A stretch of 64,000 nt of DNA from Escherichia coli (GCF_041248615.1 NZ_CP158426.1), one strand, 5' to 3'. Positions 2,034 through 49,074 are shown, numbered from the stretch's first letter. Numbers and translations: made by a program. The notes: generated from the sequence alone by a model not told the origin.

Positions 2034-2579
2034 GTGGACGATTTGACCGCACAAGCCCTGAAAGATTTTACTGCACGCTACTGCGATGCGTGGAATGAAG
2101 AGCATAAAAGCTGGCCGTTGAGTGAGGAACTGTACGGCGTTCCTTCACCGTGCATTATTTCAACCACCGAAGACGCCGTATACTGGCAACCCCAGCCGTT
2201 TACCGGGGAACAAAATGTAAACGCGGTTGAACGCGCTTTTGATATTGTGATACAACCCACAATTCATACCTTTTATACGACTCAGTTTGCCGGGGATATG
2301 CACGCGCAGTTTGGCGATATTAAACTGACATTGCTGCAAACCTGGAGTGAAGACGACTTCCGTCGGGTGCAGGAAAATCTGATTGGTCATCTGGTGACTC
2401 AGAAAAGGCTAAAACTGCCGCCCACGCTATTTATCGCGACGCTGGAAGAAGAGTTAGAGGTGATCTCGGTGTGTAATCTCTCCGGTGAAGTGTGCAAAGA
2501 GACGCTGGGAACACGTAAACGGACGCATTTAGCCTCAAATCTTGCGGAATTCCTTAATCAACTTAAGCCTCTTCTGTAA
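2034..2579 (+). CDS. syd: SecY-interacting protein Syd (GTG start)
   Basis: 181-aa [23 protein letters not shown]...; divergent from queF. Confidence 0.85.
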
Positions 2580-2598
2580 TCCAAATACCCCATCTGGT

Positions 2599-2616
2599 TG
2601 TGAGAGATCTCTTACA
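2599..2616. promoter_or_regulatory. 18-bp palindrome TGTGAGAGATCTCTTACA, candidate UvrY (BarA/UvrY) binding site upstream of csrB
   Basis: Near-perfect inverted repeat about 180 bp upstream of csrB 5' end; matches the recalled UvrY box. Confidence 0.55.
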
Positions 2617-2789
2617 GACTCTGTAGGAGATCGCCAGGAAATAAGCGAATACTTAAAAAAATAAGAATCGTTATTTTCATTTAAAATCAATATATTGCTT
2701 GTCAATTCTTAACTTTCATATGAAATTTTCCTTAAGGCATTGTCTGTAAGCGCCTTGTAAGACTTCGCGAAAAAGACGATTCTATCTTC

Positions 2790-3155
2790 GTCGACAGGGA
2801 GTCAGACAACGAAGTGAACATCAGGATGATGACACTTCTGAAGGACACACCAGGATGGTGTTTCAGGGAAAGGCTTCTGGATGAAGCGAAGAGGATGACG
2901 CAGGACGCGTTAAAGGACACCTCCAGGATGGAGAATGAGAACCGGTCAGGATGATTCGGTGGGTCAGGAAGGCCAGGGACACTTCAGGATGAAGTATCAC
3001 ATCGGGGTGGTGTGAGCAGGAAGCAATAGTTCAGGATGAACGATTGGCCGCAAGGCCAGAGGAAAAGTTGTCAAGGATGAGCAGGGAGCAACAAAAGTAG
3101 CTGGAATGCTGCGAAACGAACCGGGAGCACTGTGAATACAGTGCTCCCTTTTTTT
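2790..3155 (+). ncRNA. csrB: CsrB small RNA (CsrA-sequestering), 5' end approximate
   Basis: About 365 nt with many repeated CAGGATG / AGGA(U)G GGA motifs; ends in hairpin 3123-3148 plus T7 run 3149-3155; located between syd and yqcC. Confidence 0.85.
3123..3155 (+). terminator. Intrinsic terminator of csrB
   Basis: 11-bp stem GGGAGCACTGT/ACAGTGCTCCC, loop GAAT, followed by TTTTTTT. Confidence 0.8.
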
Positions 3156-3200
3156 ATTCCTGCTATCCTTCGCGGCAGTTTTTCTTATTGAGGTTGCTTT

Positions 3201-3530
3201 ATGACCACTCATGACCGCGTTCGTCTCCAGCTGCAGGCGCTTGAAGCATTACTGCGTGAACATCAGCACTGGCAAAACGATGAACCCCAGCCGCATCAAT
3301 TTAACAGTACCCAACCGTTCTTTATGGACACCATGGAACCACTGGAGTGGTTGCAGTGGGTGCTGATCCCGCGAATGCACGATTTGTTAGATAACAACCA
3401 GCCGTTACCGGGCGCTTTTGCCGTCGCACCCTATTATGAAATGGCGCTGGCGACGGACCACCCGCAACGCGCGCTTATTCTGGCTGAGCTGGAAAAACTG
3501 GATGCTCTTTTTGCGGATGATGCGAGCTAA
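3201..3530 (+). CDS. yqcC: DUF446 family protein YqcC
   Basis: 109-aa ORF; synteny csrB-yqcC-truC. Confidence 0.75.
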   Translation: MTTHDRVRLQLQALEALLREHQHWQNDEPQPHQFNSTQPFFMDTMEPLEWLQWVLIPRMHDLLDNNQPLPGAFAVAPYYEMALATDHPQRALILAELEKLDALFADDAS

Positions 3531-9508: not shown

Positions 9509-12265
9509 TTACCCGAGAATTTTGCTGGCTTCGCGCGCTACATTATCCATCTCGTCCAACAGTTCCAGCAGCTCCGGCTCCAAATCTTCTTCTTTAGTAC
9601 CGCTACGTAGCTGTTGTTCGATCAGTTGGCAGAGATTCTTCATACGCGGCACACCGCTATAGCCGCAACTGCCATGCAGTTTATGAATCAAATCAACCAG
9701 GCCTTCCGGGTTTTCTCCAACCAGCTGTTCCTCAACTTTGTTGCGAACTTCAGGCAGGAAATCGAGTAACATTTGCAGCATATCGCGCGCTAAATCGGTT
9801 TTTCCTGCTGCCTGGCGTAGTGCCAGTTGCCAGTCGAGGGTCGCATTCGGGTTCACCACAATTTCGTTGACTTCGGGCGTCACGACGCGAGAGGAAATAC
9901 CGCTGCCAGGCTTGTAGCGCAACAACAAATTATGCAATCGCTCTTCTTCAATCGGTTTCGCCAGATAATCGCTCATCCCTGCGCCAAGCAGCTTCTCTTT
10001 TTGCCCGGCCATTGCATGCGCCGTTACCGCGATAACTGGCGTTTGTTGCTGATGGGGGAGCTGGTGGATGAGTTCGCAGGCCCGAATGCCGTCCATGTCC
10101 GGCATTTGAATATCCATTAAGATCAAATCGAACGGCATCTGTTTCGCCCGTTCAACCGCCTGATGCCCGCTATCGCAAAGTTCCACATGTTGCACCATAT
10201 CTTCCAGCAATGCGCCGATAAGTTTCAGGTTAGCGGGGTTGTCATCAACCGCCATGACTGTCATTGCCAGCTTACTTTCATCGGTTACAGGCAAAAGCGT
10301 GTTTTGTTTGTGATGACAAAATTCCGTCAGGGCAGGTAACAGGCGCGTAGGTGTTAATGGTTTCAGCAGACACGCGCCGATACCATCTTGCTTAAGTTTT
10401 TCAGCATTGACTTGTGCATGGCAAGGAAGTGCCAGCATCAGAAAATCGGTCATCGATACCGCTTTCGCTAATCGCTCATGTTGCATTGTTAGCGGCTCGC
10501 GGAAGGTCACCGCAATGCCTAATAACATCATGTCGTAATGCGCGGGAGGCAGCGCGGAGAATGTTGGGCTATAAACCACTTCCAGCGGCGTTTCACTTAA
10601 AATATCCAGCGTGCATTGCGCTGCTGCGGAGTTTGGTTCGACATAGGCCAGGCGCTTGCCGGCGAGGCACTGGGTGGATGGCCCTTCGATAATAATGTTC
10701 GGATTCAGATCGAGATTAATGTGGAACCAGAAAGTTGAACCGCGATTCGGCTGGCTATGGAACGAAATATCGCCGCCCATTTCATTAACCAGTTTTTGTG
10801 TAATCACCAGCCCCAGCCCGGTGCCACCATGACGGCGGGAAATACTGGCATCAGCCTGTCGGAAGGCCTGGAATAAGCGCGATTGATCGCGTTCAGGAAT
10901 ACCAATGCCGGTATCCCGAATCTGCACTTCAATCTGCACTTTGGTATTACTCAGCGCACGTTTTTCTACCAGAATATCAATGTTGCCATTCTCGGTGAAT
11001 TTAATTGCATTCCCTACCAGGTTAGTGATGATTTGCTGTAATCGCAGTGGGTCGCCAATTACGTTATCGGGCACGTCGCTCTTAATATTGAGCGTCAGTT
11101 CCAGCCCTTTATCGTGAGAAGAATGTGCCAGCAGGGTAACGACTTCATCCAGCGTGCTGCGTAGTGGGAATGGAATACTTTCCAGAATCAGCTTACCCGC
11201 TTCCAGTTTCGAGAAGTCGAGAACATCATTAATAATTGCCAGCAAATTATTTGCCGAACGTTCAATCGTATTCAGGTGATCGCGCTGCGTTGGTGTTAAT
11301 TCTGTTTTCAGCGTCAGGCGAGTAAAGCCAATAACACCATTCAGTGGTGTACGCAGCTCGTGTGACATATTTGCCAGAAACTCGGATTTAATACGCGCCG
11401 CTTCCTGGGCGCGCTTTTTCGCCAGATCCAACTCAACGTTCTGAATTTCCATCTGCTCCAGCGTTTCACGCAGATCGGACGTCGCCTGGTCGATATTGTG
11501 CTGCATCTCTTCGTGATAAGCAGCCAGCGACATTGCCATCGAGTTGATACCGTTTTTCAGCATATCCAGCTCGCCGAGCATAAATCCTTCCACCCGGCTG
11601 TCGAGTTGCCCGCGACGGATGCGGTCGACGGTATTCACCATATTGCGAATCGGACCGGTTACATCGCGCATTAAGCGCCAGCCAAAAATAAGCGCAATAC
11701 CGATACAAAACAGCATCATCACGCTGGAAATAAAGATCTCTTTATATTGCTGCAAGCGAACCGATTTAAGATCCAGCTCAAGCGCAATATATCCCAACAT
11801 ATTTTGACTATTTTTGGCATCGCTACTGGGCGATTCGTCGGGGGAGTAACTCTCAGAAATAATCGGTGTGCGGAGGATCATAATATCGCCGTCACGAGTG
11901 ACAGTGAGCTGGCGAGGAAACGGCACGTTGCTGCCGAGCTGCATTGATGAGGGATCAAGATGAAAATTGGAGGTGACAAAGAGTCGGTTATTTTCATCAT
12001 AAACCGAAATCGCGCGAACAATATCGGAATGGCGACGATGCAGTACGCTTATTAACTGACCGATAGATTCGCGATTTTGCAGGCTCATGCCATATTCAGT
12101 AGAAACTGCAAGCGGCTCAATAATGCTGGCTCCGGCATCTTCCAGTTGACGCTGCAAATCGTTATAGCGATGCACAACGAAAAAGATACTCAGCAATAAA
12201 CCAATAAGGACGGTCGGTGCCAGGATCAGAATCATCATGCGTGCGCGCAGGCTGTAGTTGGTCAT
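9509..12265 (-). CDS. barA: Hybrid sensor histidine kinase BarA
   Basis: 918-aa ORF with HAMP, HisKA (SHELRTPLN), receiver and HPt regions. Confidence 0.9.
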
Positions 12266-22277: not shown

Positions 22278-22672
22278 GAGTTCCCCGCGCCAGCGGGGAT
22301 AAACCGGCTGATGCGGTTCTATCACCACCACAAATTATGAGTTCCCCGCGCCAGCGGGGATAAACCGCAAATACGCGCGAGTGGCTAACCTGGAATCATG
22401 AGTTCCCCGCGCCAGCGGGGATAAACCGGCGCGGACGATAATCAGGGGCAGGCAGGGCACGAGTTCCCCGCGCCAGCGGGGATAAACCGGAAATCCAATA
22501 TTAACGTGGTGTTTTCAAAACGAGTTCCCCGCGCCAGCGGGGATAAACCGCGTTTAGCTCCGCAATGCTGGATATCACTGATGAGTTCCCCGCGTCAGCG
22601 GGGATAAACCGTATGGGAAACAGTAGCAACGGGCACACTGGCGGAGTTCCCCGCGCCAGCGGGGATAAACCA
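22278..22672 (+). CRISPR. Orphan type I-E CRISPR array (CRISPR-II / 2.1): 7 repeats, 6 spacers of 32 bp, leader on the left
   Basis: 29-bp repeat GAGTTCCCCGCGCCAGCGGGGATAAACCG at 61-bp period; repeat 6 has the GCGTCAG variant; last repeat ends ..AAACCA; AT-rich leader with GTTGGTAGATTGT at 22221-22233. Confidence 0.95.
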
Positions 22673-39161: not shown

Positions 39162-39369
39162 GCGAGCAGCATTCCTGATTTTAAACGTGAACGCCGCTGG
39201 AAGAATTATCAGGTATAGAATGGCGTTGGGTGCTTGAGGCTGTCTGGCGTTAAGCATTCGCGAGGTTCCAGATGGACAAAAGCCCCAGGCGATATTTCTA
39301 TCAACCTGAGGCCAGCGTTCGAACCTAAGCAATTCGAATGTTAGTCTCTTCTTTGCAGGGAGGCAAGAC

Positions 39370-39522
39370 ATGCTGACAAAATATGCCCTTGTGGCAATCA
39401 TCGTACTGTGTTGTACAGTACTGGGATTCACGCTGATGGTAGGCGACTCGTTGTGTGAGTTGAGTATCAGAGAACGTGGTATGGAGTTTAAGGCAGTTCT
39501 CGCTTACGAATCGAAGAAGTAG
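39370..39522 (+). CDS. Hok/Gef-family small membrane toxin (50 aa), HokE-like; not in ORF track because shorter than 60 aa
   Basis: [50 protein letters not shown]: hydrophobic N-terminal helix, conserved Cys, Hok signature ..LCE..R...E..A.LAYE; mRNA-like 5' GGGUGCUUGAGGC and 3' GCACCC plus T-run. Confidence 0.7.
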
Positions 39523-48374: not shown

Positions 48375-49074
48375 GTGTTCCCCGCGTCAGCGGGGATAAA
48401 CCGGACTCAGTTTTTCCCTGCTGACCCTCCGAAGGGTGTTCCCCGCGTCAGCGGGGATAAACCGCCATGCCGCGCCAGCTCTGCGAAACAGCCCGCGTGT
48501 TCCCCGCGTCAGCGGGGATAAACCGATCCAAAGATAGTCGCCCCGATTGCCAAATTGGTGTTCCCCGCGTCAGCGGGGATAAACCGACGGTATTGTTCAG
48601 ATCCTGGCTTGCCAACAGGTGTTCCCCGCGTCAGCGGGGATAAACCGGCGGCACTAACGTGATAATCACGATCAATTATGTGTTCCCCGCGTCAGCGGGG
48701 ATAAACCGTGACGGTCCGAAAAAAGTTGGCTGAAGAAATTGTGTTCCCCGCGTCAGCGGGGATAAACCGGTTATTGCGTTTTCCTCACCTGCGGCGAGTC
48801 CGTGTTCCCCGCGTCAGCGGGGATAAACCGCATTCCGTGCAGCGGTCTGAATAATTGCCGCGGTGTTCCCCGCGTCAGCGGGGATAAATCGAGTAACGAC
48901 GAAAAAATACAGGCACGGGCCAGGTGTTCCCCGCGTCAGCGGGGATAAACCGATCCCCGCAGGTATCGCGCAGCTATCGATCGAGTGTTCCCCGCGTCAG
49001 CGGGGATAAACCGGACGCACTGGATGCGATGATGGACATCACTTGGAGTTCCCCGCCCCTGCGGTAGAACTCCC
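48375..49074 (+). CRISPR. Type I-E CRISPR array (CRISPR-I) adjacent to cas2: 12 repeats (last degenerate), 11 spacers of 32 bp
   Basis: 29-bp repeat GTGTTCCCCGCGTCAGCGGGGATAAACCG at 61-bp period; repeat 9 ends ..AAATCG; terminal repeat GAGTTCCCCGCCCCTGCGGTAGAACTCCC; leader 48279-48374 with GTTGGTAGATTGT at 48319-48331. Confidence 0.95.

Follow-up and report, generated by a model that had tools for sequence, protein, structure and literature searches.

Positions 2599–3158 of the stretch of Escherichia coli DNA that we analyzed (64,000 nucleotides, hereafter the window) are almost certainly the csrB locus together with its complete upstream control region, and no result of the analysis speaks against this identification. 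Judging from its sequence, this segment comprises the gene for CsrB, a CsrA-sequestering small RNA of 369 nt (2790–3158, plus strand), and the binding site for phosphorylated UvrY (UvrY-P). The window also contains barA, which encodes the sensor kinase that phosphorylates UvrY. The csrB locus, the UvrY site, and barA are all already known in detail, and biologically there is nothing new in them. A preliminary description of this DNA, which was made from the sequence alone, had reached the same judgement and had proposed the locus as a positive control for annotation. It is useful for that purpose: a textbook RNA, a published activator site, and a sensor kinase were all placed correctly without tools.

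The RNA gene matches the CsrB/RsmB family in Rfam (RF00018); this match covers 2799–3158 on the plus strand and scores 382.9 bits, as against a gathering score of 71 (E = 2.2e-111). The alignment spans the full model (positions 1–356 of 356), so by its score the RNA is a member of the family. This is the search over 2790–3155 that the preliminary description had suggested as a check on its CsrB assignment. The assignment and the location both hold, and the 3' end needs a small correction, as the annotated RNA stops at 3158 and not at 3155. Also, csrB from K-12 MG1655 (b4408, 369 nt) aligns to 2790–3158 of the window with 2 substitutions. K-12 CsrB is known to bind and sequester CsrA (PMC5027483). 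Because the two RNAs are nearly identical, differing at two bases, we infer that CsrB from the window would bind and sequester CsrA as well.

The gene neighborhood points to the same identification. The RNA gene lies in an intergenic region (2580–3200) between two ORFs that are both on the plus strand. The upstream ORF (2034–2579; 181 amino acids) has an NCBIfam equivalog match to the SecY-interacting protein Syd, and the stop codon of syd ends at 2579. The downstream ORF (3201–3530; 109 amino acids) is yqcC, according to the annotation of matching E. coli genomes. K-12 has the same gene order (syd upstream of csrB and yqcC downstream), the same RNA length of 369 nt, and the same number of GGA sites (22), and over this region the window and the annotated csrB locus of K-12 share 99% identity.

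More broadly, we found a 901-bp query over the csrB region in 5425 of 5426 complete E. coli genomes, in every case with at least 95% identity. Among these complete genomes, three strains are 100% identical to the query. The window is accordingly a piece of E. coli chromosome. In the closest strain, KE55 (NZ_CP141061.1), positions 10681–11301 correspond to 2580–3200 of the window and are identical in sequence. The RefSeq/PGAP annotation of KE55 does not include csrB in the interval from syd to yqcC, whereas K-12 MG1655 has the non-coding RNA annotated there. Because the gene is annotated in one of these strains and missing from the annotation of the other, automated annotations can evidently omit csrB, and a scan of the sequence recovers it.

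The few differences from K-12 can be described individually. Position 2841, beside GGA site 3, is A in the window, as in the Rfam consensus, and C in K-12. Position 3129, in the stem of the terminator, is A in the window and G in K-12; a G-U pair thus becomes an A-U pair, and pairing is kept. Upstream of the RNA, there are five substitutions in an AT-rich spacer (2660–2703). Two of these fall on N positions of the IHF consensus that is discussed below and none of them falls on a specified position. In contrast, the UvrY box, the additional half-site, the segment for RNase E cleavage, and the 5' end of the RNA are all identical to those of K-12.

The RNA is very rich in the motifs that are bound by CsrA. 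We counted 22 GGA, 14 AGGA, 9 CAGGA, 8 AGGATG, and 6 CAGGATG in csrB (2790–3158). Across the whole window, on both strands, the means per 369-nt tile are 4.9 for GGA, 0.9 for AGGA, and 0.1 for AGGATG. In 1000 dinucleotide shuffles of the csrB region, AGGATG occurred 0.3 times on average and at most 3 times. The preliminary description had reported on the order of 20 (C)AGGA(U)G motifs; this is accurate for the GGA core (22) but not for the full CAGGATG heptamer (6). Vakulskas et al. number the GGA sites of CsrB from 1 to 22 and place site 22 inside the terminator (PMC5027483). The count in the window agrees with this numbering, and site 22 is the GGA at 3124.

The predicted fold of csrB has a minimum free energy (MFE) of −119.9 kcal/mol (z = −4.3), which is more stable than 100 of 100 shuffled sequences. 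Most of the GGA motifs are predicted to be accessible: 19 of the 22 are mostly unpaired, although only 9 of the 22 lie wholly within hairpin loops of the MFE structure. (A count of the motifs in loops after folding was another check that had been suggested from the sequence, and its outcome is in line with the CsrB assignment.) The mean probability of being unpaired is 0.81 for nucleotides in GGA motifs, versus 0.44 for the whole RNA. The Rfam consensus structure for the family contains 12 hairpins, 11 of which have a GGA-containing loop, and all of them are matched in the window.

As had been noted from the sequence, the RNA ends in a canonical intrinsic terminator (3123–3155, plus strand), which was identified by a terminator scan and is also a hairpin of the Rfam consensus. 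It has a stem-loop at 3123–3148, with an 11-bp stem that includes 7 G-C pairs and a loop of 4 nt, and this is followed by TTTTTTT at 3149–3155. Just 5' of the terminator, at 3113–3122 (plus strand), is an unstructured segment which is identical to that of K-12. When we mapped the coordinates from PMC5027483 onto the window, this segment was predicted to hold the "necessary cleavage site" for RNase E. Specifically, the RNase E positions A327 and A331 correspond to 3116 and 3120, which are both A and are located in this unpaired segment, just 5' of the terminator hairpin. In K-12, cleavage by RNase E is blocked when CsrA occupies GGA sites 20 and 21, and CsrD overcomes this block (PMC5027483). 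These two sites map to 3085 and 3103 in the window.

Upstream of the RNA gene, the UvrY-P site is an 18-bp near-perfect inverted repeat, TGTGAGAGATCTCTTACA, at 2599–2616. It occurs just once in the window. The preliminary description had reported an 18-bp palindrome of the perfect type about 180 bp upstream of the RNA. The palindrome is there, and the distance from its center to 2790 (the annotated 5' end in K-12) is 182.5 bp, which corresponds to −183/−182; but it is not perfect, as 16 of its 18 positions are self-complementary (8 of 9 pairs). TGTGAGAGATCTCTTACA has a single mismatch to TGTAAGN6CTTACA, and no other site in the window comes within 1 mismatch of this pattern, when 0.14 sites of this quality would be expected per window.

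A full-text search of the literature located this exact 18-mer in a single paper, by Zere et al. 2015, who reported it upstream of csrB and described it, in E. coli, as a "nearly perfect palindrome" centered at −183/−182 (PMC4682653). In K-12, ChIP-exo showed that UvrY crosslinks to the palindrome in vivo and that this depends on barA, and only phosphorylated UvrY protected the palindrome from DNase I (PMC4682653). Since the window has the footprinted and crosslinked K-12 site letter for letter, at the same distance from the RNA, the earlier proposal that it is a site for UvrY-dependent activation is very probably correct.

We searched one genome per species (298 Gb in total) for TGTRAGAGATCTCTYACA. 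This gave at least 120 stretches, and about 17 matches would be expected by chance at equal base frequencies. The matches listed include stretches from the Enterobacterales, the Vibrionaceae, Shewanella, the Halomonadaceae, Alcanivorax, and Kangiella. We considered an RNA gene to be GGA-dense if a 300-nt stretch with 10 or more GGA was located no further than 400 nt from the box. By this definition, a GGA-dense RNA gene is beside the box at 113 of the 125 occurrences in other genomes, among the matches listed. Most of these box-linked stretches, again among the matches listed, contain 19–28 GGA, versus backgrounds of 2–6 for the same loci.

We also ran Rfam on 18 sampled loci with the box, and CsrB was called in 12 of them. 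In the nine sampled loci from Enterobacterales that have a CsrB match, the center of the box is 175–202 bp before position 1 of the Rfam model. This distance is 191.5 bp in the window and 190.5–192.5 bp in E. albertii, Citrobacter, Enterobacter, and Pluralibacter. In two loci from Vibrionaceae, the Rfam alignment starts about 260–275 bp from the box. Because the search that gave all of these loci was for the box itself, the fact that the box is invariant in the cross-species alignments is not independent evidence; its association with genes for GGA-rich RNAs, and the conservation of its flanks, do not depend on the search.

One conserved feature of the flanks is an additional UvrY-type half-site, TGTAGGAGA, at 2622–2630 (plus strand), which is 5 bp 3' of the inverted repeat. 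Zere et al. described this half-site for csrB from both E. coli and Salmonella (PMC4682653). The half-site was not part of our search pattern. Nevertheless, TGTRAG is present at an offset of +22 or +23 in 48 of the 98 box-linked loci. A variant that does not fit this pattern, TGTAGG, is at +23 in 17 further loci.

Two alternative explanations for the features of this region deserve consideration. The GGA-rich stretch might code for a small protein instead of acting as an RNA, and there are indeed ORFs that overlap csrB, with 46 amino acids (2814–2954) and 26 amino acids (2935–3015) on the plus strand and up to 71 amino acids on the minus strand. But all of these ORFs are short, and the list of ORFs is purely mechanical. 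The full-length match to the covariance model, the repeated layout of GGA in hairpin loops, and the terminator all fit an RNA, and in K-12 the locus is annotated as a non-coding RNA. We rejected the coding explanation, which seems extremely improbable. The palindrome, in turn, might have arisen by chance or might be the transcription terminator of syd, and not a site for a regulator. It starts just 20 bp past the stop codon of syd. Also, many 18-mers are this self-complementary: the window has 10 in which at least 8 of the 9 pairs are complementary, versus about 6–7 expected, so palindromy alone is unremarkable. However, the palindrome is letter for letter the UvrY-P site that was identified by DNase I footprinting and by ChIP-exo, and the family of 18-mers adjoins Csr/Rsm-type RNA genes in 113 of the 125 occurrences among the matches listed, across the Enterobacterales, the Vibrionaceae, Shewanella, and the Halomonadaceae. 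As for a syd terminator, the terminator scan finds nothing there, the palindrome is not followed by a T-run, and the footprint is published; we rejected this as well. There is very little chance that the palindrome is anything other than a site for a regulator, and we will refer to it as the UvrY box.

Between the UvrY box and the promoter, at 2685–2697 (plus strand), AATCAATATATTG matches the IHF consensus (WATCAANNNNTTR). Zere et al. marked a putative site for IHF in the interval that separates the two crosslinking sites of csrB, and they reported that loss of IHF lowers CsrB about 10-fold (PMC4682653). As 2685–2697 lies within the same interval, it is a candidate for the published putative site. 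The motif is weak on its own, with 9 matches to the pattern in the whole window versus 2.5 expected.

The putative core promoter (2754–2785, plus strand) was identified from conservation and from its spacing to the 5' end of the RNA. It comprises CTTGTAAGAC (2754–2763) and GATTCTAT (2778–2785), which are at least 75–90% conserved across 28 Enterobacteriaceae. Given the spacing to the 5' end in K-12, the −35 hexamer is likely TTGTAA (2755–2760) and the −10 element likely lies within GATTCTAT. A scan of 2400–3400 for consensus sigma-70 promoters found none, either upstream of 2790 or elsewhere in this interval. This fits with a weak, activator-dependent promoter, and we did not count it against transcription. 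On the minus strand, a terminator-like hairpin (2792–2775) overlaps the start of csrB; we attribute it to chance, as conservation of its arms does not extend even to Citrobacter.

We aligned the upstream regions from the 28 Enterobacteriaceae, whose overall identity to the window in this region is only 48–88%. The alignment shows these conserved blocks: the half-site (2622–2634), parts of the IHF consensus, TTTCATATGAAA, CTTGTAAGAC, GATTCTAT, and the 5' end of the RNA. TTTCATATGAAA is a perfect 12-bp palindrome at 2714–2725, centered at −70.5. With up to 2 mismatches, and at an unchanged distance from the UvrY box, it is found in 16 of the 98 box-linked loci. These are from several genera, including Escherichia, Citrobacter, Pseudocitrobacter, Pluralibacter, Siccibacter, and others. 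In the searchable literature, we found TTTCATATGAAA in cloning primers and unrelated papers only, with no regulator assigned to it.

Closer to the promoter, there are two direct repeats of TGTAAG (2745–2750 and 2756–2761, within 2745–2763), which are 11 bp apart, at −45 and −34, and which resemble UvrY half-sites. The sequence TGTAAGAC is conserved over the −35 region of csrB. The TGTAAG at −34 sits within CTTGTAAGAC, which is nearly invariant across the 28 Enterobacteriaceae, and it overlaps the −35 hexamer. By ChIP-exo, UvrY was also crosslinked to a promoter-proximal region of csrB, from −56 to +25, which was not footprinted in vitro (PMC4682653). Both copies of TGTAAG are inside this region. 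One possibility is that CTTGTAAGAC is a low-affinity contact for UvrY-P, reached via the bend that is introduced by IHF, and/or that TTTCATATGAAA binds a further regulator of csrB. We consider this idea to be speculative and rather doubtful. If it were true, direct contact between UvrY-P and CTTGTAAGAC would explain the promoter-proximal crosslink without a footprint in vitro. On the other hand, csrC from E. coli shows a similar downstream crosslink to UvrY (PMC4682653). The −35 region of csrC is TTGTTT, so it does not share the TGTAAG half-site. Because csrC is crosslinked downstream yet carries TTGTTT, direct contact at the −35 region of csrB is less likely. Zere et al. favored indirect crosslinking through RNA polymerase (PMC4682653), and we also think that this is more likely than direct contact with UvrY-P.

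The gene for the sensor kinase BarA was placed correctly by the preliminary description. At 9509–12265, on the minus strand, there is an ORF that encodes a tripartite sensor kinase of 918 amino acids. It matches the NCBIfam equivalog for BarA (NF008318) with 1623.9 bits, as against a cut-off of 890, and residues 1–917 align to positions 1–917 of the 920 in the profile. The Pfam domains are in the order sCache_4, HAMP, HisKA, HATPase_c, Response_reg, and Hpt. The residues of the phosphorelay (H302, D718, and H861) are all present, and the protein is 100% identical to BarA from K-12, with 0 differences. The nearest end of barA is 6.35 kb from the 3' end of csrB, in agreement with the 6.4 kb that had been described.

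The other partners in the pathway are not in the window. Because positional register with the KE55 genome is lost after about 14.9 kb, we searched for uvrY and csrA directly, using tblastn. With UvrY from K-12 as the query, we found only the receiver domain of BarA, at 28.6% identity. A CsrA query gave nothing meaningful in the window. In K-12, uvrY is at 1.99 Mb, which is about 0.9 Mb from csrB. The preliminary description had referred to a complete BarA-UvrY-CsrB signaling target. The target itself (the box and the RNA) and the sensor are both present, but because uvrY and csrA are absent from the window, the whole pathway is not complete there.

The proximity of barA and csrB could indicate a functional gene cluster, that is, a unit that is co-regulated or co-inherited. 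The two are 6.35 kb apart in the window, and barA is also no more than a few kb from csrB in E. albertii, Enterobacter sp. Ag1, Enterobacter asburiae, Cedecea neteri, and Pantoea stewartii. However, the two genes are on opposite strands, with six unrelated genes (yqcC, truC, yqcA, gudP, gudX, and gudD) between them. The third partner, uvrY, is far away in K-12, and BarA acts in trans, through UvrY. Furthermore, the loci from Vibrio and Photobacterium have only weaker BarA-like matches, at 30–40% identity, although short flanking sequences limit this test. The linkage can be explained by inherited synteny alone, and we consider a functional cluster to be unlikely. The barA orthologs near box-linked csrB genes (L005, L010, L058, L064, and L091) are 47–98% identical to BarA. 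In E. albertii, csrB and barA are separated by only about 1.7 kb, and this gap cannot accommodate the gudPXD genes that intervene in E. coli.

The regulatory mechanism of csrB was worked out in K-12, and for this strain we infer it from near-identity. BarA would sense acetate, formate, and other carboxylates and would autophosphorylate in response. The phosphate would pass from H302 to D718 to H861 and then to UvrY, which is encoded outside the window, in a His-Asp-His-Asp relay. UvrY-P would bind the 18-bp inverted repeat at −183/−182. IHF, bound between the repeat and the promoter, would bend the DNA so that UvrY-P could reach the weak promoter and activate transcription from about 2790. The 369-nt transcript is expected to have about 21 GGA motifs accessible, many of which would be in short hairpin loops, and CsrA dimers would bind to these motifs with high avidity. 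This would titrate CsrA away from its mRNA targets. The RNA would end at the intrinsic terminator and would be removed by RNase E, which would cut in the unstructured stretch just 5' of the terminator. CsrA at GGA sites 20 and 21 would block this step, and CsrD would relieve the block.

Besides K-12 csrB, a closely related system is csrB from Salmonella enterica, which is an ortholog in another genus. We compared it to the window by way of its description in PMC4682653: the site for SirA has the same 18-nt repeat (at −182/−181), the half-site is present, and expression depends on IHF. E. coli CsrC is a second CsrA-sequestering RNA that is activated by UvrY-P from far upstream (PMC4682653). Unlike CsrB, it is shorter (annotated as 246 nt), and it is not in the window. 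The inverted repeat of csrC (TGTGAGACATTGCCGATA) is much less symmetric than that of csrB, and csrC has no apparent IHF site. The −35 region of csrC is TTGTTT, versus TTGTAAGAC in csrB.

Two-component systems of the GacS/GacA type bind an upstream palindrome that resembles TGTAAGN6CTTACA and drive the expression of a GGA-rich RNA that acts as a sponge for CsrA or RsmA. RsmB, RsmY, and RsmZ, with their GacA boxes (Pectobacterium and Pseudomonas; Rfam clan CL00106), follow the same logic as csrB. Among the matches listed, GGA-dense RNAs that are linked to the box occur in Dickeya and Pectobacterium, which belong to the Enterobacterales, and also outside that order, in Halomonadaceae and Alcanivorax. 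Outside of the Enterobacterales and the Vibrionaceae, the box-linked RNAs are shorter and have about 10 GGA per 300 nt; at the sampled loci, they are below the Rfam gathering score for CsrB.

Some contigs from Photobacterium and Shewanella (L028, L063, L070, L074, and L104) have two boxes of the UvrY/GacA type that are 500–1640 bp apart. In three of these (L063, L074, and L104), each copy of the box is followed by its own GGA-dense RNA. In a related locus (L016), Rfam calls two adjacent genes of the CsrB family. These observations suggest that the double-box loci of Photobacterium and Shewanella are tandem duplications of Csr RNA genes.

Elsewhere in the window, the comparison to strain KE55 shows 26 mismatches over the first 13.8 kb. 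Scattered differences begin at about 14860, within relA, and positional register is lost further on. The Rfam family for the sok antitoxin (RF01794) matches 39228–39385 (plus strand) with 111.7 bits, versus a gathering score of 59, and this is a chromosomal toxin-antitoxin locus of the hok/sok type. In KE55, a gene of the Hok/Gef family is annotated between cysH and cas3. The window also contains two type I-E CRISPR arrays on the plus strand, both of which have 29-bp repeats with a period of 61 bp. The array at 22278–22672 has 7 repeats (GAGTTCCCCGCGCCAGCGGGGATAAACCG) and the array at 48375–49013 has 11 repeats (GTGTTCCCCGCGTCAGCGGGGATAAACCG). Because both arrays are shorter than those annotated in KE55 (700 and 1127 bp), spacer content differs between these close strains.
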